Shown: in pieces, positions 6,514 through 56,983 of the stretch
Numbering within the stretch: position 1 is the stretch's first letter
Layout of the letters: the number at the start of each line of letters is the position of its first letter
NCBI RefSeq assembly: GCF_000027125.1
Contig: NC_017626.1
Length of the DNA stretch: 64,000 nt
DNA from: Escherichia coli 042
GTDB lineage: Bacteria; Pseudomonadota; Gammaproteobacteria; Enterobacterales; Enterobacteriaceae
Direction: 5' to 3' (one strand)
Translations under genes and position numbers: made by a program
The notes under the pieces: model-generated
What the model saw: only the letters and a program-made list of their open reading frames with translations
What the model was told of the DNA's origin: nothing
Database searches by the model: none

Positions 6514-6696
6514 TATTACTCCGGAAAATGGAAGCGTCGATTTTGGGTGGCTGGCCGTTAAAAATTTTAACTGCATTTAGCCAACTTAAATTAATGAAAA
6601 AATGTTATTAATCGTTGAGCTAAAGTCATTAGAGATGCTTTGCCCTTAATGTAACCATATCGCAATAAGTTATGTTTTTAAATTGAGGGCATTATT

Positions 6697-7749
6697 ATGA
6701 AAAAAATACCCTGCGTGATGATGCGAGGTGGAACCTCGAGGGGCGCGTTCCTGTTAGCGGAACATTTACCCGAAGATCAAACGCAGCGCGATAAAATATT
6801 GATGGCAATTATGGGTTCCGGTAACGATTTGGAAATTGACGGTATTGGCGGCGGTAATCCGCTGACCAGTAAAGTCGCCATTATTAGCCATTCCAGCGAT
6901 CCGCGTGCTGATGTCGATTATCTGTTTGCTCAAGTTATCGTCCATGAGCAACGTGTCGATACCACGCCTAACTGCGGCAATATGCTGTCTGGCGTTGGGG
7001 CATTCGCCATTGAAAATGGTTTGATTGCAGCGACTTCGCCAGTTACCCGCGTACGTATCCGCAACGTCAATACGGGTACGTTCATCGAAGCTGATGTGCA
7101 AACGCCAAATGGTGTTGTCGAGTACGAGGGTAGCGCCAGAATTGACGGCGTACCGGGTACTGCCGCACCGGTTGCGCTCACTTTCCTGAATGCCGCCGGA
7201 ACCAAAACCGGAAAAATCTTCCCGACTGATAATCAGATTGATTATTTTGACGATGTCCCGGTGACCTGTATCGATATGGCGATGCCAGTTGTCATTATTC
7301 CTGCTGAATATCTGGGAAAAACAGGCTATGAATTACCGGCGGAGCTGGATGCCGACAAAGCATTATTAGCCCGCATTGAATCTATCCGTCTACAAGCGGG
7401 TAAAGCAATGGGCTTAGGCGATGTCAGTAATATGGTTATCCCTAAACCTGTGCTTATTTCTCCAGCGCAGAAAGGCGGAGCAATTAATGTGCGTTATTTT
7501 ATGCCGCATTCTTGCCATCGCGCGCTGGCGATAACCGGTGCTATTGCCATTTCCAGTAGTTGTGCATTGGAAGGCACCGTCACCCGACAAATCGTCCCTT
7601 CTGTAGGATACGGCAATATCAATATTGAACACCCCAGTGGTGCGCTCGACGTTCATTTAAGTAATGAAGGTCAGGATGCCACGACGTTACGCGCATCTGT
7701 TATTCGGACAACCAGAAAAATATTTTCCGGTGAAGTTTTTCTTCCCTGA
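6697..7749 (+). CDS. ybhH: PrpF/AcnD-accessory family isomerase YbhH
   Basis: 350-aa ORF; recalled YbhH sequence and gene order. Confidence 0.85.
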   Translation: MKKIPCVMMRGGTSRGAFLLAEHLPEDQTQRDKILMAIMGSGNDLEIDGIGGGNPLTSKVAIISHSSDPRADVDYLFAQVIVHEQRVDTTPNCGNMLSGVGAFAIENGLIAATSPVTRVRIRNVNTGTFIEADVQTPNGVVEYEGSARIDGVPGTAAPVALTFLNAAGTKTGKIFPTDNQIDYFDDVPVTCIDMAMPVVIIPAEYLGKTGYELPAELDADKALLARIESIRLQAGKAMGLGDVSNMVIPKPVLISPAQKGGAINVRYFMPHSCHRALAITGAIAISSSCALEGTVTRQIVPSVGYGNINIEHPSGALDVHLSNEGQDATTLRASVIRTTRKIFSGEVFLP

Positions 7750-7824
7750 AAAAATTCGTTGTCAGGATAAGGACAATCAATAAAGGACTTCTGTATGAGT
7801 CATACAGAAAGAACAGGATTTTAA

Positions 7825-9258
7825 ATGAATAAAAAATCGTTATGGAAGCTAATTCTGATATTAGCGATCCCATGTATTATTGGCTTTATGCCAGCTCCGG
7901 CAGGATTAAGCGAACTGGCGTGGGTGCTTTTTGGTATTTACCTGGCGGCCATTGTGGGGCTGGTTATCAAGCCTTTCCCGGAACCTGTCGTACTGTTAAT
8001 TGCCGTTGCTGCCTCAATGGTGGTGGTCGGTAACTTATCCGACGGTGCGTTTAAGACCACCGCCGTATTAAGTGGTTACTCTTCAGGTACCACCTGGCTG
8101 GTGTTCTCGGCGTTTACCTTAAGCGCCGCATTTGTGACCACCGGCTTAGGTAAACGTATAGCCTATCTGCTGATTGGTAAAATCGGTAACACCACGCTGG
8201 GTCTGGGTTACGTTACGGTATTCCTCGATCTGGTACTGGCTCCGGCAACACCGTCTAACACCGCGCGTGCGGGCGGCATTGTGTTACCGATCATCAACAG
8301 CGTGGCGGTGGCTTTGGGGTCAGAACCGGAAAAAAGCCCGCGTCGTGTTGGACATTACCTGATGATGTCCATTTACATGGTCACCAAAACCACCAGCTAT
8401 ATGTTCTTTACCGCAATGGCGGGGAACATTCTGGCGCTGAAAATGATCAACGATATTCTGCACCTGCAAATTAGCTGGGGTGGATGGGCGCTGGCCGCCG
8501 GATTGCCGGGTATCATTATGCTGCTGGTCACCCCGCTGGTGATTTACACCATGTATCCGCCAGAAATTAAGAAGGTGGATAACAAAACCATCGCCAAAGC
8601 GGGCCTTGCCGAACTGGGACCGATGAAAATCCGCGAAAAAATGCTGCTCGGTGTCTTCGTGCTGGCGCTGCTGGGCTGGATTTTCAGTAAGTCACTGGGG
8701 GTTGATGAATCCACCGTGGCAATCGTTGTTATGGCGACTATGCTGCTGCTGGGTATCGTTACCTGGGAAGACGTGGTTAAAAATAAAGGCGGCTGGAATA
8801 CCTTAATCTGGTACGGCGGTATTATCGGCTTAAGCTCCTTATTATCGAAAGTTAAATTCTTCGAATGGTTAGCTGAAGTCTTTAAAAATAACCTGGCATT
8901 TGATGGTCACGGTAACGTTGCTTTCTTCGTTATTATTTTCCTCAGCATTATCGTGCGTTATTTCTTCGCTTCCGGTAGTGCCTATATCGTTGCCATGTTA
9001 CCGGTATTTGCCATGCTGGCGAACGTCTCCGGCGCACCGTTAATGTTAACCGCGCTGGCACTGTTGTTCTCCAACTCCTATGGCGGCATGGTTACTCACT
9101 ATGGCGGCGCGGCAGGTCCGGTCATCTTTGGCGTGGGTTATAACGATATTAAATCCTGGTGGTTGGTCGGTGCGGTACTGACGATATTAACCTTCCTGGT
9201 GCATATCACCCTTGGCGTGTGGTGGTGGAATATGCTGATCGGCTGGAACATGCTGTAA
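7825..9258 (+). CDS. ybhI: DASS-family anion transporter YbhI
   Basis: 477-aa polytopic membrane ORF; gene order ybhH-ybhI-ybhJ. Confidence 0.85.
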   Translation: MNKKSLWKLILILAIPCIIGFMPAPAGLSELAWVLFGIYLAAIVGLVIKPFPEPVVLLIAVAASMVVVGNLSDGAFKTTAVLSGYSSGTTWLVFSAFTLSAAFVTTGLGKRIAYLLIGKIGNTTLGLGYVTVFLDLVLAPATPSNTARAGGIVLPIINSVAVALGSEPEKSPRRVGHYLMMSIYMVTKTTSYMFFTAMAGNILALKMINDILHLQISWGGWALAAGLPGIIMLLVTPLVIYTMYPPEIKKVDNKTIAKAGLAELGPMKIREKMLLGVFVLALLGWIFSKSLGVDESTVAIVVMATMLLLGIVTWEDVVKNKGGWNTLIWYGGIIGLSSLLSKVKFFEWLAEVFKNNLAFDGHGNVAFFVIIFLSIIVRYFFASGSAYIVAMLPVFAMLANVSGAPLMLTALALLFSNSYGGMVTHYGGAAGPVIFGVGYNDIKSWWLVGAVLTILTFLVHITLGVWWWNMLIGWNML

Positions 9259-9387
9259 ATATACTCGTCATACTTCAAGTTGCATGTGCTGCGTCTGCGT
9301 TCGCTCACCCCAGTCACTTACTTATGTAAGCTCCTGGGGATTCACTCGATTGTCGCCTTCCTGCAACTCGAATTATTTAGAGTATAT
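9259..9387. repeat. ERIC (IRU) enterobacterial repetitive intergenic element
   Basis: ~129 bp with imperfect terminal inverted repeats and the recalled ERIC core GTAAGCTCCTGGGGATTCAC / AAGTGACTGGGGTGAGCG. Confidence 0.7.
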
Positions 9388-9440
9388 CCATTTATTATCT
9401 TTCTGCGCACTTCTCGGTGCGCAGATATCTGGAGCATTTG

Positions 9441-11702
9441 ATGATCAAGTTATCTGAAAAAGGCGTGTTTCTCGCCAGTAATAACGAAATAATTGCCGAA
9501 GAACATTTCACCGGCGAAATTAAAAAAGAAGAAGCAAAAAAAGGCACTATTGCCTGGTCTATTCTCTCTTCTCATAATACGTCCGGAAATATGGATAAAC
9601 TTAAAATTAAGTTTGATTCATTAGCCTCTCACGATATTACCTTTGTTGGTATTGTACAGACCGCTAAAGCGTCCGGTATGGAACGTTTCCCGCTGCCGTA
9701 TGTGCTGACCAACTGCCATAACTCACTTTGCGCCGTCGGCGGCACCATTAACGGTGATGACCATGTTTTTGGTTTATCGGCGGCTCAGCGTTATGGCGGT
9801 ATTTTTGTGCCTCCGCATATTGCGGTCATCCATCAATATATGCGTGAGATGATGGCAGGCGGCGGCAAAATGATCCTCGGGTCAGACAGCCACACCCGTT
9901 ACGGTGCATTAGGGACAATGGCAGTCGGTGAGGGCGGCGGCGAGTTGGTAAAACAGCTGCTTAATGACACCTGGGATATCGACTATCCGGGAGTTGTTGC
10001 GGTGCATCTGACCGGAAAACCAGCGCCGTATGTGGGGCCACAGGATGTGGCGCTGGCTATCATCGGTGCCGTGTTCAAAAACGGCTACGTCAAAAACAAA
10101 GTGATGGAATTCGTAGGTCCCGGTGTTGCTGCGCTCTCTACCGATTTCCGTAACAGCGTTGACGTTATGACCACGGAAACGACCTGTTTAAGTTCTGTCT
10201 GGCAAACCGATGAAGAAGTCCATAACTGGCTGGCGCTGCACGGTCGCGGCCAGGATTACTGCCAGCTTAACCCTCAACCGATGGCGTACTACGATGGCTG
10301 CATCAGCGTTGATTTAAGCGCCATCAAACCAATGATTGCGCTGCCGTTCCACCCGAGCAACGTGTATGAAATCGACATGCTGAACCAGAACCTGACCGAC
10401 ATTCTGCGTGAGATTGAAATTGAGTCCGAACGCGTGGCGCACGGTAAAGCCAAACTCTCGCTGCTGGATAAAGTGGAAAATGGTCGCCTGAAAGTGCAGC
10501 AGGGGATTATCGCGGGCTGTTCTGGCGGTAACTACGAAAACGTCATCGCGGCGGCGAATGCACTGCGCGGTCAATCCTGTGGCAATGACACCTTCTCGTT
10601 AGCGGTTTACCCGTCATCACAGCCGGTGTTTATGGATTTAGCCAAAAAAGGCGTGGTAGCAGATTTGATTGGCGCAGGCGCAATCATCAGAACCGCGTTC
10701 TGCGGCCCATGCTTTGGCGCGGGCGATACGCCAATCAACAACGGTTTGAGTATTCGCCACACCACGCGTAACTTCCCGAACCGCGAAGGCTCTAAGCCAG
10801 CCAATGGGCAGATGTCAGCGGTGGCGTTGATGGACGCTCGTTCTATCGCTGCGACTGCGGCAAACGGTGGCTATTTAACCTCTGCCAGCGAACTTGATTG
10901 CTGGGACAACGTACCGGAGTACGCCTTCGATGTAACTCCGTATAAAAACCGTGTTTATCAGGGCTTTGTGAAAGGGGCGACCCAGCAACCATTGATTTAC
11001 GGACCGAACATAAAAGACTGGCCAGAATTGGGGGCGCTAACTGACAATATCGTCCTCAAAGTGTGCTCGAAGATCCTCGACGAAGTGACCACCACCGACG
11101 AACTGATCCCTTCCGGTGAAACCTCTTCTTATCGTTCAAATCCGATTGGTCTGGCGGAGTTTACCCTGTCACGCCGCGATCCAGGTTATGTTGGCAGAAG
11201 TAAAGCGACTGCTGAGCTGGAAAATCAGCGTCTGGCGGGGAATGTCAGCGAGCTGACAGAGGTGTTTGCGCGCATTAAGCAGATTGCTGGTCAGGAGCAT
11301 ATTGATCCGCTGCAAACTGAAATTGGCAGCATGGTCTATGCGGTGAAACCAGGCGATGGTTCAGCGCGTGAGCAGGCGGCGAGCTGCCAGCGTGTGATTG
11401 GCGGTCTGGCGAATATTGCCGAGGAGTACGCGACTAAACGCTACCGTTCTAACGTCATCAACTGGGGGATGTTACCGCTGCAGATGGCGGAAGCACCAAC
11501 GTTTGAAGTGGGGGATTACATTTACATCCCTGGCATTAAAGCAGCGCTGGATAATCCGGGTACGACGTTTAAAGGTTATGTGATCCATGAAGATGCGCCG
11601 GTAACGGAAATTACGCTTTACATGGAAAGCCTGACGGCCGAAGAGCGCGAGATTATCAAGGCGGGTAGTTTGATTAACTTCAATAAAAACCGTCAGATGT
11701 AA
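9441..11702 (+). CDS. ybhJ: Aconitase-family protein YbhJ
   Basis: Track ORF trimmed to [11 protein letters not shown]; 753 aa, aconitase-like. Confidence 0.85.
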
Positions 11703-13100: not shown

Positions 13101-13115
13101 GCTTTTTTATACTAA
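13101..13115. other. attL core (B-O-P') of lambda-type integration; P' arm follows to ~13188
   Basis: GCTTTTTTATACTAA followed by GTTGGCATTATAAAAAAGCATTGCTTATCAATTTGTTGCAACGAACAGGTCACTATCAGTCAAAATAAAATCATTATTTGATTTC, the recalled lambda P' arm. Confidence 0.95.
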
Positions 13116-13188: not shown

Positions 13189-14259
13189 TTATTTGATTTC
13201 AATTTTGTCCCACTCCCTGCCTCTGTCATCACGATACTGTGATGCCATGGTGTCCGACTTATGCCCGAGAAGATGTTGAGCAAACTTATCGCTTATCTGC
13301 TTCTCATAGAGTCTTGCAGACAAACTGCGCAACTCGTGAAATGTAGGCGGATCCCCTTCGAAGGAAAGACCTGATGCTTTTCGTGCGCGCATAAAATACC
13401 TTGATACTGTGCCGGATGAAAGCGGTTCACGACGAGTAGATGCAATTATGGTTTCTCCGCCAAGAATCTCTTTGCATTTATCAAGTGTTTCCTTCATTGA
13501 TATCCCGAGAGCATCAACATGCAATGTTGTAGGGATGGCAATTTTTACACCTGTTTTGCTTTGCTCGACATAAAGATATCCATCTACGATATCAGACCAC
13601 TTCATTTCGCATAAATCACCAACTCGCTGCCCGGTAACAACAGCCAGTTCCATTGCAAGTCTGAGCCAACATGGTGATGATTCTGCTGCTTGATAAATTT
13701 TCAGGTATTCGTCAGCCGTAAGTCTTGATCTCCTTACCTCTGATTTTGCTGCGCGAGTGGCAGCGACCGGGTTTGTTGTTATATGGCCTTCAGCTATTGC
13801 CTCTCGGAATGCATCGCTTAGTGTTGATCTGATTAACTTGGCTGACGCCGCCTTGCCCTCGTCTATGTATCCATTGAGCATTGCCGCAATTTCTTTTGTG
13901 GTGATGTTTTCAAGTGGAGCATCAGGCAGACCCCTCCTTATTGCTTTAATTTTGCTCATGTAATTTATGAGTGTCTTCTGCTTGATTCCTCTGTTGGCGA
14001 GGATTTTTTCGTAGCGATCAAGCCATGAATGTAACGTAACAGAATTATCACTGTTGATTCTCGCTGTCAGAGGCTTGTGTTTGTGTCCTGAAAATAACTC
14101 AATGTTGGCCTGTATAGCTTCAGTGATTGCTATCCTCCTGTCTCGGCCTAATCCAAACTCTTTACCCGTCCTTGGGTCCCTGTAGCAGTAATATCCATTG
14201 TTTCTTATATAAAGGTTAGGGGGTAAATCCCGGCGCTCATGACTTCGCCTTCTTCCCAT
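13189..14259 (-). CDS. int: Lambda integrase (tyrosine recombinase)
   Basis: 356 aa, MGRRRSHERRDLPPNLYIRNNGYYCYRDPRTGKEF..., essentially identical to recalled lambda Int. Confidence 0.97.
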   Translation of the reverse strand: MGRRRSHERRDLPPNLYIRNNGYYCYRDPRTGKEFGLGRDRRIAITEAIQANIELFSGHKHKPLTARINSDNSVTLHSWLDRYEKILANRGIKQKTLINYMSKIKAIRRGLPDAPLENITTKEIAAMLNGYIDEGKAASAKLIRSTLSDAFREAIAEGHITTNPVAATRAAKSEVRRSRLTADEYLKIYQAAESSPCWLRLAMELAVVTGQRVGDLCEMKWSDIVDGYLYVEQSKTGVKIAIPTTLHVDALGISMKETLDKCKEILGGETIIASTRREPLSSGTVSRYFMRARKASGLSFEGDPPTFHELRSLSARLYEKQISDKFAQHLLGHKSDTMASQYRDDRGREWDKIEIK

Positions 14260-49198: not shown

Positions 49199-50131
49199 AT
49201 GCATCGTATAGACACGAAAACCGCGCAGAAGGATAAGTTCGGCGCGGGTAAGAACGGTTTTACCCGTGGTAACCCCCAGACCGGCACGCCTGCCACCGAT
49301 CTGGATGATGACTACTTTGACATGTTGCAGGAGGAGCTTTGCAGCGTGGTGGAGGCATCCGGTGCCAGCCTGGAGAAGGGGCGGCATGACCAGTTGCTTA
49401 CAGCGCTTCGTGAGCTGCTGTTAAGCCGCAAGAATCCGTTTGGCGATATCAAATCGGATGGCACGGTGAAAACGGCTCTCGAAAACCTTGGTTTGGGAGA
49501 TGGCTCGGGGCGTTACAGCAAAACTGTCGTTTTTTCATCGTCGGGTTCATATACGTGGCCAGCTGACGTAAAACGAATTGACGTTATTCTGACTGCGGCG
49601 GGCGGCGGTGGCGGTGGATGTAACGCGGAGAACGCAAATCAGACATTTTCAGGGGCTGGCGGAGGAGCCGGAGGTACTGTTTTTGCCACTATTTATGCGA
49701 CAGACAACGATGCCGGGCCAGGAACCTATACAGTGACAATTGGCAGCGGTGGTAGTGGTGCCAATGGGGCAGGGTCTGGAAATAATGGCGGTAATAGTTC
49801 GTTCATGACATTAACTGCGCTCGGCGGCCAGGGTGGGCAATGGGGCGGCGCTACAAATACCGCTGGCGGGCGCGGTGGCTCAGGCTCTGGCGGTTATAAA
49901 ACTGAACAAGGCGGAGACGGTTCAGACGGACAGGCGGGCCAGGCGCTATTAGTAGGCAATGGGGCATCGAGCTATTGGGGTGGCGGCGGCCGCGCTGGGC
50001 AACTGAGCGGTAATCCTGGAGTTTGCTCTGGCTCCGGCGGCGGGGGTGCATACGATAATAGCTATTCACACACGTCAGGACGTGGCGGGCACGGAGCTAA
50101 TGGCGTGCTGGTAATTCGGGAGTACATGTAA
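49199..50131 (+). CDS. Tail fiber protein with glycine-rich C-terminal domain
   Basis: 310 aa; conserved N-terminal region then Gly-rich low-complexity C-terminus. Confidence 0.8.
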
Positions 50132-50536
50132 ATGAATGATGTTTATGCAGTTGTTGATAATAACGTTGTTATTAATGTCATTATCTGGGACGGAATTTCT
50201 GAATGGAAACCAGAGGCTGGTAATTTAGTTCCGTTAAACGGCGATGCTGGCATCGGTTGGTCATATTCAGACGGAGTATTTACCGCGCCACCTCCCCCAG
50301 AACGCTCTCACAACGCGTTAGTTGCGGAGGCTGAGCTGCAGAAATCAGCACTACTGACCGTAGCAAATAACGCAATAGCACCGCTGCAGGATGCCGTTGA
50401 TTTGGAAATGGCGACAGACGATGAACAGACGTTACTGCTGGCGTGGAAAAAATACAGGGTACTGCTGAACCGTGTTGATACCTCAGCGGCACCCGAAATA
50501 GAGTGGCCTACGCAACCGGGGGAGCGGGCCAGTTGA
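50132..50536 (+). CDS. Tail fiber assembly chaperone (Tfa)
   Basis: 134 aa with Tfa C-terminal motif [28 protein letters not shown]. Confidence 0.8.
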
Positions 50537-50657
50537 TATCAGGCGCAGGGGCAGCATCAACTGCTGTCACTGCGTCGATGTAGTCGAGTACCGCATTCAG
50601 CCGCCTTTTTTCATCATCAGTCAGTTTGCGGCCTACACCTCTCCGTTGACATCTTTG
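50511..50657 (-). pseudogene. Relic of a second, inverted tail-fiber-assembly gene (C-terminal 49 codons, no start)
   Basis: Minus-strand open frame ...[39 protein letters not shown] mirrors the Tfa C-terminal motif; overlaps tfa 3' end convergently. Confidence 0.45.
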
Positions 50658-50834
50658 TTATATGGTACAACTGCGCAGAGGCCTGTCTCTCCAACTGTGC
50701 CAGTTGAATACTACGATACAACGCTCGGCCTTCCTATTTGGTGGAACATAACCACATCCACATGGAAAAGAGCTGATGGTGCAGATGTATAATTCTGGTG
50801 CCGCGCATGCGGCACCAATAAAAAACATATTAAA

Positions 50835-52310
50835 CTAAAGTGAATCTATTCCATTTTTCCAAATAAGAACTTTTTTGTCTTGTATTTTATGAGTGCTATC
50901 AGGCTGCCCAAACTGTTTTATGGCCTTTTCCTCTTGCTCTACATCATCAGCAATTAAAAAATTAGCTCCTTTTTGGTACCATTCTTTTTTTGATAACCAA
51001 TTATATGGTGTGAATCTATCACCATACGACTCAAATGGAGCTACGTTGATATCACTAAATCCAGCAACAGATGATGCAAACCAAAATGATGCATAACCTC
51101 TTTGTAGTTTATTTTTTATTAAGAAATCTCTTAATTCTATTGTAATATCATTTTTATTAACAATGTTTTTTGTTGTTGCCATCGTTGGCAACGATAACGC
51201 AATAACGATTAATGATATTAGTAAATTTGTCTTCACTGGTAAGGAGAAAGAATTTCTAGCAATCACAATTGACATGAAAATAAATGTTGGGACTATGTAT
51301 CTAATTGAGAAAAGATTTGTTGGCCTGTCACTTGAAACATAGGCAATCAACATGACTAATGATGATACAATAAGAACCTGGTCAATAAAATCAATTTCTT
51401 TAAATTTAAGAATGTTTTTATAAGATAAAAATAAGAATACAAAAATGAAAAACACCTTTATCATGGTGAATAATGAGTTAAAGCTACCTATCTCCATTCC
51501 AAACGCGTACCCACCAAAAAATTTGAATACGCCCATGATAACAAGAGATATGTTGCTTGTTATTTGTTGAAACTCTACTATGTGAGGTTTGGTTATGCCT
51601 GGCAGGTTAAATCCACCAAGCTTAATGAATATAAATGATATGATCTCAGCAATAAATATAGATGATATAGTGAAAACCAACAATAACAAATCATTAGTAT
51701 TCAACGAATCTCTTTTCATTAGAGAAGCATACATTCTATATATGCAAACAAAAACTATAGGTATTATAAAGGCATATTTAGATATATCATCACTAAAAAC
51801 AAGCAACGATAACATAAATACATATGGAAAAAGTAATTTTAAATCATTTTTCTTTCTGTATCTATCTATTATTAGTATGATCGCCAGCATGTAAATGTAC
51901 GCACCAATATGTATACATGCTATAAGCATTATACTTGATGAGAAAACCGTTGGAATTCCAAATACAGAAAGAACAGGCCATAACGATGCCCTACTTTTAG
52001 TATGAGAGATATATAGCGATAGTGTTACTAATATAGACATGAAAACTCCAGGCACAATATAGTACAGATTTTCATTAAATCCTATTATTTTTATCGCTAT
52101 AGCATATGGTATTATTTCTGTGAAATAGAATGATACAGTTGATAAATCCCACCCACTGAGAAAAATATTTCCTTCAGTAATATCCCTTGCCTCTCTGAAT
52201 GAAGACATGACATCTGAGTTTGGAATTATGTTTTTAGCAATCATTGAGTAAATTATTGATAATACAATAAATGTTGCCAGCCAATATAAAAGCTCAAGCT
52301 TCTTGCTCAT
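50835..52310 (-). CDS. Serotype-specific O-antigen glucosyltransferase (GtrC-type)
   Basis: 491-aa polytopic membrane protein, strongly AT-rich, downstream of gtrA-gtrB in same operon. Confidence 0.75.
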
Positions 52311-53224
52311 TTTTTACCCTTAAGTACATACTTTGGACGCTGCTTAACTTCAATGTAAATTCTACCAATATACTCACCGAGCACTCCAATCCCAATTAAC
52401 TGGATGCCGCCAAGAAATAATATTGATACAAGAATTGAAGGGTATCCAGGTACATTATTACCAAAAATTAATTTATCAATTATCATCCATGAACCGTATG
52501 TAAATGATATACATGCAATAAATAACCCAATATAGGTCCACATGCGAAGCGGGAATGTTGAGAAGCTAGTGATCCCTTCCAGCGCCAAGTTCCATAGCTT
52601 CCATCCATTGAACTTTGTGCTTCCTGCAACGCGTTCTGCTCGCGCATATTCTACGACATCGGTTCGACCACCAACCCAGCTCAGCACACCCTTCATAAAC
52701 AGGTTTCGTTCTGGCATGAGCTTAATATTTTCTACTACTTCGCGAGACATGAGCCGGAAGTCGCCAACATTCTCTTCTATCTGAGGGTTGCTGATTTTGT
52801 TATGAAGTTTATAGAACCACTCAGCAGATTTACGCTTCAGCCTGCTGTCAGTGGAGCGGTCAGAGCGTTTAGCCAGAACCATATCTGCACCGGCCTGCCA
52901 TTTCTCTATCAAGTGAGGAATAACTTCGATAGGGTCTTGCAGATCAACGTCAATCGGGATAATTGCCTCCCCGGTAGCATGGTCCAGACCTGCGAACAGG
53001 GCGGGTTCTTTGCCGAAGTTACGTGTGAACGACAGCGAAACCACAAGCGGGTCGGCAACAGCGAGCTCGTTGATAATTGATTCTGTAGCGTCTTTGCTGC
53101 CATCGTTTATGAAGACTATCTCGACTTCATGCTGCTGAAGCCCTTCAAATTCGCGCACAGTTTTATAAAAAATAGGTATCGTGGCCTCTTCGTTAAAGAC
53201 CGGAACGACTAAAGAAATTTTCAT
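52307..53224 (-). CDS. gtrB: Bactoprenol glucosyltransferase GtrB
   Basis: 305 aa; GT2 N-terminal domain ([13 protein letters not shown]...DGSKD) plus C-terminal TM helices. Confidence 0.9.
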
Positions 53225-53583
53225 TTCGCATCCCTAAAGACAATGAACTTTGAATAGACGAAACCGCACACCAGGCTGATGGCGGAGAAGGTGACAAGAG
53301 TTATCATCGGGGGAAGTGCGCATCTATCAGCAGCCCATCCAACAGTAGCACTGAGTGTTCCCATGAACCCGACATATAACATGTAGCGCATCGTTGTAGT
53401 TGATGCTTTGAATGTGAATTTTGCATTCGCGAAGAAGCTAAAACTCACAGCCACAACGAAACCTGCGAAGTTTGCCAGAGCCTGATTGGTATGCGCGGCA
53501 TAGATACATACACCAAAAACCACCCAGTGTATAAGTGTGTTCAGCACACCAATCGAGGTGTACCTTGCAAATATATTTAACAT
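53221..53583 (-). CDS. gtrA: GtrA flippase-like small membrane protein
   Basis: 120 aa, four TM segments, first gene of gtr operon. Confidence 0.88.
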
Positions 53584-53926
53584 TTATTTAATCAATGAGT
53601 TCTGAAAGGTATGAAGTCTATCATCCAAGTCTCAATCGATCGATACTTGCGGTAGTTGATGAGGAAAACTCTGGTACACAAAGCTTTGCACTGGACTGCA
53701 AGGTGTTGTGCTTCTCTGGAGTGCGATATGTTTGATGACAAAAAATTAGCGCAAGAGGACAAAAAATCACCTTGCGCTAATGCTCTGTCTCAGGTCACTA
53801 ATACCATCTAAGTAGTTGATTCATAGTGACTGGATATGTTGTGTTTTGTAGTATCATGCAGTCTATTTTTTAGACTAAATTTATTTTAAAACATTGATAT
53901 TATTGGCTTTTGCTGTTTCGCGTTCA

Positions 53927-53941
53927 GCTTTTTTATACTAA
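53927..53941. other. attR core (P-O-B'); lambda P arm lies at ~53770-53926
   Basis: Second copy of GCTTTTTTATACTAA followed by bacterial CTTGAGCG; upstream CAGGTCACTAATACCATCTAAGTAGTTGATTCATAGTGACTGGATATGTTGTGTTTT matches recalled lambda P arm. Confidence 0.95.
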
Positions 53942-54031
53942 CTTGAGCGAAACGGGAAGGTAAAAAGACAAAAAGTTGTTTTTAATACCTTTAAGTGATA
54001 CCAGATGGCATAGCGCCATCTGGCAGAGTGA

Positions 54032-54508
54032 TTAACTAAACATCGCAGTAATCGAGGCGCTTGCCAGAGAATGGAAATGGACGTTAAACCCGACCATCGC
54101 GCCGCTGGCACCTTCATCGACATCAATACGTTCTACATCCAGCGCGTGAACGGTAAAAATGTAGCGATGGGTTTCGCCTTTCGGCGGCGCTGCACCATCG
54201 TACCCGGTTTTACCAAAGTCGGTACGCGTCTGCAAAACGCCGTCTGGCATTGCTACCAGACCAGAGCCAAACCCTTGCGGTAATACGCGGGTATCAGCGG
54301 GTAAATTAACAACTACCCAGTGCCACCAGCCGGAGCCGGTTGGCGCATCCGGGTCGTAGCAGGTGACAACAAAACTTTTCGTTCCCGCAGGAACATCATC
54401 CCACGCCAGATGCGGTGAAACATTATCGCCATCGTAACCCATGCCGTTAAAGACATGACGATGTGGCAACTTATCGCCATCGCGCAGATCATTACTGATG
54501 AGTTTCAT
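54032..54508 (-). CDS. ybhB: PEBP-family protein YbhB
   Basis: 158 aa; first chromosomal gene right of attB-lambda. Confidence 0.9.
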   Translation of the reverse strand: MKLISNDLRDGDKLPHRHVFNGMGYDGDNVSPHLAWDDVPAGTKSFVVTCYDPDAPTGSGWWHWVVVNLPADTRVLPQGFGSGLVAMPDGVLQTRTDFGKTGYDGAAPPKGETHRYIFTVHALDVERIDVDEGASGAMVGFNVHFHSLASASITAMFS

Positions 54509-54566: not shown

Positions 54567-55856
54567 TTATTGGCAAAAAAATGTTTCATCCTGCACCGCA
54601 CGATTAACCGCTGCGGTCAGACGCTGCAACTGTTGCGGGAGAATAATATAGGGCGGCATCAGGTAAATCAGTTTGCCAAAAGGCCGGATCCAGACACCCT
54701 GTTCGACAAAGAATTTTTGCAGCGCTGCCATATTCACCGGACGAGTGGTTTCGACCACGCCAATGGCCCCTAGCACGCGCACATCGGCAACCATTTTGGC
54801 ATCACGGGCTGGTGCCAGTTGCTCGCGCAGTTGTACTTCAATAGCCACCACCTGCTGCTGCCAGTCGCCAGATTCGAGAATCGCCAGGCTGGCGTTTGCT
54901 GCCGCGCAGGCTAGCGGATTGCCCATAAAAGTTGGCCCATGCATAAAGCAACCGGCTTCGCCGTTACTGATGGTTTCCGCAACCTCGCGCGTGGTGAGTG
55001 TGGCGGAAAGGGTCATTGTACCGCCGGTTAAGGCTTTACCGAGGCACAAAATGTCCGGCGCGATATCTGCATGTTCACAGGCAAACAGTTTGCCAGTACG
55101 ACCAAATCCGGTGGCGATCTCGTCGGCAATCAGCAAGATACCTTCGCGATCGCACATTTTGCGGATTCGTTTTAACCATTCCGGATGGTAGATGCGCATC
55201 CCGCCTGCGCCCTGGACAATCGGTTCAATGATCACCGCCGCGATTTCATGACGATGCGCCGCCATCAGGCGGGCAAAGCCCACCATATCGCGCTCATCCC
55301 ATTCACCATCCATGCGGCTTTGCGGGGCGGGAGCAAACAAGTTTTCTGGCAGATAGCCTTTCCACAGACTGTGCATTGAGTTATCCGGATCGCACACCGA
55401 CATCGCGCCAAAGGTATCGCCATGATAACCATTGCGGAAGGTCAGAAAACGCTGGCGCGCTTCGCCTTTGGCTTGCCAGTACTGCAACGCCATTTTCATC
55501 GCCACTTCCACCGCTACGGAACCGGAGTCCGCGAGAAAAACGCATTCCAGCGGTTGCGGCGTCATTGCCACCAGTTTGCGGCACAGCTCAATGGCTGGCG
55601 CATGGGTGATACCGCCAAACATCACATGCGACATGGCATCAATTTGCGACTTCATCGCCGCATTAAGCTGCGGGTGATTGTAACCGTGGATCGCCGCCCA
55701 CCAGGACGACATACCGTCAACCAGGCGTCTGCCGTCAGACAAAATTAGCTCGCAACCTTCGGCGCTCGCCACCGGATAAACCGGTAGCGGGGAGGTCATG
55801 GATGTGTATGGGTGCCAGATATGGCGTTGGTCAAAGGCAAGATCGTCCGTTGTCAT
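54567..55856 (-). CDS. bioA: Adenosylmethionine-8-amino-7-oxononanoate aminotransferase
   Basis: Track ORF trimmed to [20 protein letters not shown]; 429 aa; divergent from bioBFCD. Confidence 0.95.
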
Positions 55857-55864
55857 AATCGACT

Positions 55865-55898
55865 TGTAAACCAAATTGAAAAGATTTAGGTTTACGAG
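55865..55898. promoter_or_regulatory. bio operator (BirA binding site) with divergent bioA/bioB promoters
   Basis: Imperfect palindrome TTGTAAACC-N-GGTTTACGA between bioA and bioB starts. Confidence 0.75.
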
Positions 55899-55942
55899 TC
55901 TACACCGAATTAACAACAAAAAACACGTTTTGGAGAAGCCCC

Positions 55943-56983
55943 ATGGCTCACCGCCCACGCTGGACATTGTCGCAAGTCACAGAATTATTTGAAAAACCGT
56001 TGCTGGATCTGCTGTTTGAAGCGCAGCAGGTGCATCGTCAGCATTTCGATCCACGTCAGGTGCAGGTCAGCACTTTGCTGTCAATTAAGACCGGAGCTTG
56101 TCCGGAAGATTGCAAATACTGCCCGCAAAGCTCGCGCTACAAAACCGGGCTGGAAGCCGAGCGGTTGATGGAAGTTGAACAGGTGCTGGAGTCGGCGCGC
56201 AAAGCGAAAGCGGCAGGATCGACGCGCTTCTGCATGGGCGCGGCGTGGAAGAATCCCCACGAACGCGATATGCCCTACCTGGAACAAATGGTGCAGGGAG
56301 TAAAAGCGATGGGGCTGGAGGCGTGTATGACGCTGGGTACGTTGAGTGAATCTCAGGCGCAGCGCCTTGCGAATGCCGGGCTGGATTACTACAACCACAA
56401 CCTCGACACCTCGCCGGAGTTTTACGGCAATATCATCACCACACGCACTTATCAGGAACGCCTCGATACGCTGGAAAAAGTGCGCGATGCCGGGATCAAA
56501 GTCTGCTCAGGTGGCATTGTGGGTTTAGGCGAAACGGTAAAAGATCGCGCCGGATTATTACTGCAACTGGCAAACCTGCCGACGCCGCCGGAAAGCGTGC
56601 CAATCAACATGCTCGTGAAGGTGAAAGGTACTCCACTGGCAGATAACGATGATGTCGATGCCTTTGATTTTATTCGCACCATTGCCGTAGCGCGGATCAT
56701 GATGCCGACCTCTTACGTGCGCCTTTCTGCCGGACGCGAGCAGATGAACGAACAGACTCAGGCGATGTGCTTTATGGCCGGGGCTAACTCGATTTTCTAC
56801 GGTTGCAAACTGCTAACCACGCCGAATCCGGAAGAAGATAAAGACCTGCAACTGTTCCGCAAACTGGGGCTAAATCCACAGCAAACTGCCGTGCTGGCAG
56901 GGGATAACGAACAACAGCAGCGTCTGGAGCAGGCACTGATGACCCCGGACACTGACGAATATTACAACGCGGCAGCACTATGA
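55943..56983 (+). CDS. bioB: Biotin synthase
   Basis: 346 aa; radical-SAM CxxxCxxC (CPEDCKYC). Confidence 0.97.

Follow-up and report, generated by a model that had tools for sequence, protein, structure and literature searches.

An O-antigen glucosylation cassette with a predicted GT-C-fold third protein at the attR end of prophage 042p1 in Escherichia coli 042

The cassette and its place in the prophage

In a 64,000-nucleotide stretch of the Escherichia coli 042 chromosome (contig NC_017626.1; called the window here), three genes on the minus strand lie close to the right-hand attachment site of prophage 042p1, also named ROD15. They are gtrA, gtrB and a third gene, Ec042-0853 or gtr(type). 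A first reading made from the DNA letters (the sequence-only reading) had placed a three-gene operon at 50835–53583 and took it for a gtrA-gtrB-gtr(type) O-antigen glucosylation cassette. All three open reading frames (ORFs), of 120, 305 and 491 amino acids (aa), proved exact, and the interpretation as such a cassette is supported (Table 1). Successive genes overlap by 4 nt in ATGA stop/start junctions (53221–53224 and 52307–52310), which is the usual sign of translational coupling. The GC content is 45.5% in gtrA, 44.2% in gtrB and 30.6% in the third gene, compared with 49.4% for the prophage and 55–60% for the adjacent tail genes. The description of the third gene as very AT-rich is thus accurate.

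The lambda att core, GCTTTTTTATACTAA, occurs in two exact copies in the window, where 0.09 would be expected by chance, and ybhB-bioA-bioB follow immediately to the right of the second copy. The two cores bracket a prophage with an integrase gene, and the cassette therefore lies 343 bp inside attR at att-lambda, at the end of the prophage where it had been placed. Since int is at the opposite end, cassette and int would be adjacent in the circular form of the phage. The mechanically called bioA ORF (54567–55967, minus strand, 466 aa) runs 37 codons beyond the annotated 429-aa BioA; the extra codons start at an upstream in-frame ATG and are an ORF-calling artefact, not a real feature.

This cassette has been described before. 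Chaudhuri et al. (2010, PMC2808357) reported ROD15 in strain 042 at 877116..917926 (40,811 bp, with a 15-bp direct repeat) and its cargo, 'gtrAB and Ec042-0853', at 914835..917583, with a role in O-antigen modification. In the same paper, one half of 042p1 is characterised as lambda/P22-like and the other as SfV-like, and its GtrA and GtrB are given as 87% identical to those of SfV; no other gtr locus is listed for the strain, whose phenotype is O44 (O44:H18), not O77. A window coordinate plus 864,000 equals the published coordinate. The distance between the cores (40,811 bp), the length of the cassette (2,749 bp) and the two offsets (37,719 and 343 bp) all equal the ROD15 values, and the third protein is exactly CBG33681.1. 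These four lengths and offsets, together with the accession, identify the cassette as a rediscovery of the published feature, a case of textbook lysogenic conversion reported for this strain. New here are the fold and family context of the third protein, the exact recombination junction, the mobility across genera and phage types, and two third genes that split part of the serotyping group 'O77g'.

Table 1. Features of the cassette and its surroundings, in window coordinates.
Feature	Coordinates	Strand	Description and basis
gtrA	53221..53583	minus	small membrane protein of the GtrA family (120 aa), putative undecaprenyl-phosphate glucose flippase; ORF and homology
gtrB	52307..53224	minus	305-aa GT2 polyprenyl-phosphate glucosyltransferase, UDP-glucose to undecaprenyl-phosphate glucose; homology
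gtr(type), Ec042-0853 (CBG33681.1)	50835..52310	minus	491-aa membrane glycosyltransferase of predicted GT-C fold, putative specificity component
Mobile three-gene module	50650..53623		one 2,974-bp blastn block common to Salmonella P22-like prophages
Exchanged specificity segment	50780..52306		third gene plus 55 bp downstream; comparison with the sister prophage of KK05-19
Hairpin, 10-bp GC	50795..50818	minus	17 nt past the third-gene stop; RNA fold dG −20.6 kcal/mol, z −4.5
Strong intrinsic terminator	53738..53788	minus	between attR core and gtrA; dG −23.8 kcal/mol, z −5.2, then UAAUUUUUUGU
attR core	53927..53941	plus	exact lambda att core; ybhB and bioA directly right
attL core	13101..13115	plus	exact lambda att core; left end of prophage 042p1/ROD15
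Integrase ORF	13189–14259	minus	356 aa; homology to annotated int of HK97, Gally and Huey

GtrA and GtrB

The identities proposed for the first two proteins hold. GtrA matches phrog_2224 ('GtrA-like O-antigen conversion') over residues 1–120 with E=2.7e-69, and is 86–87% identical to GtrA of phages SfI, SfII, SfIV and SfV and 95% to that of HF4s. The Pfam family PF04138 is on record for the equal-length product of a 95.7% identical Salmonella cassette. GtrB matches phrog_841 (E=6.6e-166), and its residues 2–301 align to the solved GtrB of Synechocystis (PDB 5EKP, E=4e-89), with ArnC as the runner-up. The IPIDxDLQDP motif, of the DxD type, is kept between the two. The identity to GtrB of SfI, SfII, SfIV and SfV is again 86–87%, while the NCBIfam matches fall under the equivalog cut-offs. 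The locus shows the hallmarks of a three-component Gtr system: gtrA comes first, GtrB has a GT2 domain and C-terminal transmembrane helices, the third gene is divergent and of low GC, and the whole lies near attP and int.

Family and fold of the third protein

The third protein had been described as a polytopic protein in the position of the serotype-specific transferase; with approximately 13 transmembrane (TM) helices and a gene directly downstream of gtrB, it answers to this. It has no match in Pfam even at E≤10 and none in NCBIfam, and in PHROG it matches, with its C-terminal part, only families of unknown function. The Prokaryotic Genome Annotation Pipeline (PGAP) labels it 'hypothetical protein' in every genome that carries the gene. 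The automated UniRef name of CBG33681.1 is 'Glycosyltransferase RgtA/B/C/D-like domain-containing protein'.

An AlphaFold model based on 17 homologues has a pLDDT of 86.1 and a pTM of 0.87. In the model, the TM helices are followed by a C-terminal α/β domain (residues 389–488), and this is the combination of a multi-helix membrane domain with a periplasmic domain seen in GT-C enzymes. The top of both fold searches with this model was occupied by GT-C glycosyltransferases only. By sequence, a profile search of the PDB gave no relative; the matches came from fold comparison alone. As modelled, Ec042-0853 has the fold of a lipid-sugar-dependent GT-C glycosyltransferase. Its donor would be a polyprenyl-phosphate-linked sugar, given the co-transcription with gtrB.

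The GtrC of Salmonella family II (prophage BTP1) is an acetyltransferase, reported to determine O-antigen composition and length, and the PGAP label and the lack of a Pfam or NCBIfam family would equally suit some other polytopic protein of the envelope: a polymerase like Wzy, a ligase like WaaL, a GtrC of the acyltransferase type or a transporter, for example. We regard this as highly improbable. The model is confident and matches GT-C enzymes only, whereas the transporters among the Foldseek matches all have E>0.3 and TM-scores of at most 0.16. The protein is also homologous to the glucosyltransferase GtrI, has no Acyl_transf_3 match, and carries an invariant Asp after TM1, as do ArnT, PglB and the protein mannosyltransferases (PMTs). 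Two specific candidates were rejected. One was the acyltransferase-type GtrC of family II/BTP1, on the fold and the missing Acyl_transf_3 match; the other was a GtrII-like protein with the Pfam domain Glucos_trans_II (presumably PF14264), for which there was no Pfam match at E≤10 and no match to GtrII by BLASTP or profile.

Relatives of the third protein are numerous. Nineteen turned up in a word-indexed search, from E. coli, Salmonella, Citrobacter and Serratia, none of them with a name or a Pfam domain. An exhaustive profile search returned 4,445 clusters (50% identity) at E≤1e-3 and 765 at E≤1e-30, and the best-scoring matches listed are mostly full-length at about 500 aa. Thirty members were sampled: all lack a Pfam match at E≤0.001, and a single one has a sub-threshold match to PMT_2. 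Three distant members lie on contigs of about 2 kb without context; the link between the family and gtrAB is shown for the Enterobacteriaceae only.

Across 31 diverse members, GtrI included, residues D33, G47, P184, R337, G405 and G468 are invariant. S32, N48, W54, H134 and D174 vary very little, and close relatives all keep D43. In the model, D33 is placed eight residues after TM1 (helix 3–25), where the first helix on the periplasmic side (32–45) begins, and it fits the conserved acidic residue in the first extracytoplasmic loop that is typical of GT-C enzymes. The catalytic acidic residue of ArnT, PglB and the PMTs likewise sits just after TM1. D33, D174 and R337 may have catalytic roles.

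Comparison with known type-specific transferases gave a divided answer: GtrI is detectably related, and GtrII, GtrIV and GtrV are not. GtrI of phage SfI scores 51 bits against the family profile (profile 45–484 against GtrI 46–504) with the conserved motifs aligned. The identity to the third protein is approximately 17% in this alignment and 22.5% in a 191-residue local BLASTP alignment. Judged from the alignments, the kinship is superfamily-level homology, not orthology, and the specificity is surely different. BLASTP and profile comparisons with GtrII, GtrIV, GtrV, GtrC of epsilon34 and HF4s, and the alternative E. coli third gene described below gave no match. A tblastn search with the third protein in 50,697 phage records returned nothing, GtrI included, so no isolated phage among them carries a close relative.

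Modularity and exchange

The block that contains the three genes is 95.6–95.8% identical to the Salmonella enterica genomes GCA_025102945.1 and GCA_006910325.1, and homology stops on both sides of it. The Salmonella copies (locus coordinates 6688–9661) occupy two other chromosomal sites, one beside a fimbrial operon and the other beside hut. Their neighbours on these P22-like podovirus prophages are a P22-type tailspike and gp16/gp20/gp7. These comparisons indicate that the three-gene module moves across genera and phage types.

A second and smaller unit of exchange was seen against the sister prophage of strain KK05-19. The two are 97.6–98.2% identical over 50000–50779 and 52307–54100, with no homology between, and the right-hand junction is exactly the gtrB stop codon (52307). 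The break at 52307 recurs in comparisons with Salmonella and Serratia loci, where third proteins 31–33% identical to Ec042-0853 are encoded directly after gtrA-gtrB. We propose that acceptor and linkage specificity depend on the third gene only, and that this gene is swapped as a cassette at the stop codon of gtrB.

The prophage itself is a mosaic. Its late half has approximately 96% DNA identity to SfII, SfI, SfIV and SfV, and its early half, including int and att, is HK97/lambda-like. To the left of the cassette, PGAP annotates in near-identical genomes a 126-nt, N-terminally truncated tail-fibre-assembly pseudogene (approximately 50508–50633, minus strand), which overlaps, on the opposite strand, the end of the intact tail-fibre-assembly gene at 50132–50536. 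The pseudogene may be a remnant of an invertible tail-fibre (host-range) segment. The 310-aa tail-fibre ORF at 49199–50131 (plus strand) is intact in the window and is split in near-identical RefSeq genomes into a truncated StfP pseudogene and a 'glycine-rich domain-containing protein'. The tail-fibre gene is a mosaic, and the difference seems to be one of inconsistent annotation.

Regulatory signals

The hairpin behind the third gene was matched in stability by none of 200 shuffled sequences. It is the probable end of the operon transcript, although its form is non-canonical and its U-tract weak. The module common to the Salmonella prophages includes it, and SfV and SfII have an annotated terminator at the equivalent place. 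The terminator in front of gtrA, a very stable hairpin followed by a U-run, also has annotated counterparts, in SfII and epsilon34. It would stop int transcripts in the circular phage and read-through from ybhB in the prophage. Its position, across attP from int, matches that of lambda sib/tI; the likeness is one of position. Together, the terminator before gtrA and the hairpin after the third gene suggest an insulated 'moron' unit.

An Rfam search of 50400–54100 found no RNA family. The 358 bp upstream of gtrA contain only one GATC, at 53638, and a phase switch of the P22 Dam/OxyR type, which has four GATC sites in paired OxyR half-sites, was rejected.

Association with the host O-antigen

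The serogroups O17, O44, O73, O77 and O106 share one gene cluster and one Man-Man-Man-GlcNAc backbone, and differ only in glucose branches attributed to prophage gtr genes (Liu et al., PMC7685785). O44 is the O77 backbone plus glucose. As relayed by a citing paper, Wang et al. (2007) attributed the O44 branch to GtrB, GtrA and 'WbbG' on a prophage between ybhB and ybhC; Ec042-0853 is probably this 'WbbG'. For O73, a 2023 paper states explicitly that the branch transferases are still unidentified.

We surveyed 5,426 complete E. coli genomes, a set that does not include strain 042 itself. DNA similar to gtrAB is present in 2,474 of them, and the third gene in 11 records (10 distinct genomes), with identity of at least 99.3%. 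In the carrier GN05505, the galF-gnd locus encodes wzy and wzx of the 'O17/O44/O73/O77/O106 family', manC, manB and two glycosyltransferases. The O77-group wzy occurs in only 93 of the 5,426 genomes, and nine of the 11 carrier records have it. The third gene is thus almost confined to genomes with this cluster, one among approximately 180.

The alternative third gene, found in 35 genomes, has no overlap with the 11 carriers, and at least 32 of the 35 have the same O-antigen cluster. One of these genomes is K12a, the serologically defined O17:H18 reference strain. The two mutually exclusive third genes therefore partition part of the otherwise untypable 'O77g' group, in which at least 47 genomes carry neither of them.

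Some of these genomes have peculiarities of their own. In K12a (NZ_CM144236.1), the alternative third gene (1558640–1560113) lies approximately 365 kb from wzy, compared with approximately 1.4–1.5 Mb for att-lambda prophages elsewhere; possible reasons are a prophage at another site and a rearranged genome. In SCU-482 (NZ_CP053247.1, 4187814–4193809), the annotation shows frameshifts in manC, manB, wzy, wzx and the third gtr gene, which could reflect a low-accuracy assembly or a strain turning rough. ET650 (NZ_CP100936.1) and 300081 (NZ_CM128587.1) have IS1-rich rearranged chromosomes of 4.58 and 4.71 Mb, with two gtrAB places each.

A homologue with 31% identity to the third protein is present in Salmonella serovar Carrau (O:6,14), and we take O:6,14 to be the Salmonella member of the shared-backbone group. 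The homologue fits the shared-backbone idea expressed in the title of Wang et al. (2007).

Proposed mechanism

On this evidence we consider it likely that GtrB makes undecaprenyl-phosphate glucose, that GtrA flips it, and that the GT-C protein Ec042-0853 glucosylates a mannose of the O77-type O-unit to give O44. In that case, the attR end of 042p1 would hold a lysogenic-conversion operon that is both complete and insulated. On the cytoplasmic face, GtrB would transfer glucose from UDP-glucose to undecaprenyl phosphate, and GtrA would bring the product to the periplasmic leaflet. Ec042-0853 would pass the glucose on to one particular mannose in the nascent ->6)Man(a1-2)Man(a1-2)Man(b1-3)GlcNAc(a1-> O-unit, and this branch would turn the O77 backbone into serogroup O44. 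The donor sugar, acceptor and linkage named here are putative, as are expression in the lysogen and the phage exclusion suggested in the sequence-only reading.

Several points weigh against this proposal. The equation of Ec042-0853 with 'WbbG' is indirect, and the statement that O44 was 'confirmed ... by finding an appropriate prophage' (PMC7685785) is a genomic inference. The searchable literature yielded no experiment, biochemical or genetic, on Ec042-0853. All 11 carriers type only as O77g, none of them being serologically O-typed, and the two carriers outside the nine, ET650 and 300081, are rearranged genomes whose O-antigen loci were not located. The hypergeometric P for at least eight carriers with the O77-group wzy is 9e-13, a value inflated because several carriers are probably clonal (one ST69, many identical protein accessions). 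Salmonella gtr families II and IV give no detectable O-antigen change. A scan for sigma-70-like promoters between the terminator and gtrA found none, and the 30.6% GC of the third gene could favour silencing by H-NS.

The cassette might work as described while its third enzyme modifies another target, such as enterobacterial common antigen, capsule, core or a protein, or makes a non-O44 modification, with the O44 glucose coming from a different enzyme. Specificity cannot be read from the sequence, GtrI as the sole characterised relative is very distant, some Salmonella GtrC families leave the O-antigen unchanged, and the assignment of O44 to this gene comes from genome inspection. We nevertheless judge this unlikely, given the near-confinement of the third gene to one O-antigen cluster, the similar confinement of the alternative gene in the same slot and its presence in the O17 reference strain, and the absence of a further gtr locus from the list in the 042 genome paper.

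The intact frames could also be cryptic cargo, silent in the lysogen (silenced, phase-OFF or promoterless) and without a normal phenotype. The missing promoter-like site and the AT-rich third gene would agree with this, and Salmonella gtr family VI modifies lipopolysaccharide only under a constitutive promoter. On the other hand, the three frames are intact and 99.3–99.8% conserved in the 11 carrier records, the module is retained at 95.7% identity across genera and phage types, strain 042 is O44 and not O77, and the four-GATC switch is absent. Furthermore, approximately 120 bp upstream of gtrA are conserved with the Sf phages, whose gtr operons are expressed. Silent cargo is quite unlikely in the light of these observations, and conversion of the O77 backbone to O44 by an active cassette is the explanation that we prefer.

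Implications for annotation and typing

A broader reading joins these results, and we lean towards it by a little. It would make Ec042-0853 the enzyme behind O44 and place it, alongside GtrI, among the handful of members with a name in a large GT-C family outside Pfam and NCBIfam (765 clusters at E≤1e-30). The third-gene alleles would split O77g, and the Salmonella P22-like cassette (95.7% identical) and the Carrau homologue (31%) would mark the same mannan acceptor across genera. Current in-silico serotyping cannot separate O17, O44, O73, O77 and O106, and 14 of 15 strains in a 2026 announcement were typed only as 'O77g'. If the reading is true, the presence of Ec042-0853 or of the alternative third gene would resolve 'O77g' in silico, including the lineage of the 2025 French haemolytic uraemic syndrome outbreak. 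The alleles at the prophage slot look usable as markers for ST69 extraintestinal pathogenic E. coli and for the O77g:H18 lineage of Shiga toxin-producing E. coli. The remaining value lies in annotation and typing of a specificity gene that is a 'hypothetical protein' in RefSeq and has no Pfam or NCBIfam model.

Comparison with known systems

The cassette and the 042p1/ROD15 cargo of enteroaggregative E. coli 042 (PMC2808357) are the same object with no sequence difference, and the insertion site between ybhB and ybhC is also that of the O44 gtrA-gtrB-'wbbG' set of Wang et al. (2007); the publications give no fold or family for the third protein. Another variant is that of KK05-19. Its prophage and att-lambda site are the same and its GtrA and GtrB 97–100% identical, but it differs in its third gene, annotated 'glucosyltransferase domain-containing protein'. 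That protein has no BLASTP or profile relation to Ec042-0853 and is presumably O17-specific, not O44-specific.

ArnT (PDB 5F15/5EZM), the undecaprenyl-phosphate-L-Ara4N:lipid A transferase, shares the GT-C fold at 6–9% identity to the third protein. In contrast to ArnT, the third protein does not match Pfam PMT_2, has a smaller periplasmic domain at its C-terminus, and would act on another acceptor with another donor sugar. GtrI of SfI is the sole characterised Gtr transferase with detectable homology, and its O-antigen substrate differs; GtrII, GtrIV and GtrV are unrelated to the third protein in sequence.

The Sf phages differ from 042p1 in attP, which in these phages targets a tRNA gene, whereas the integration module of 042p1 is of the lambda/HK97 type at att-lambda. 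Their acceptor is Rha-Rha-Rha-GlcNAc, while that of the 042 cassette is presumably the mannan backbone. The architecture is shared. The cassettes of SfI, SfII, SfIV, SfV and SfX have the same gene order and orientation beside attP and int, with a convergent tail-fibre-assembly neighbour, and the third gene is of low GC in these phages too, at 31–33% for gtrI, gtrII, gtrIV and gtrV against 30.6% in 042p1.

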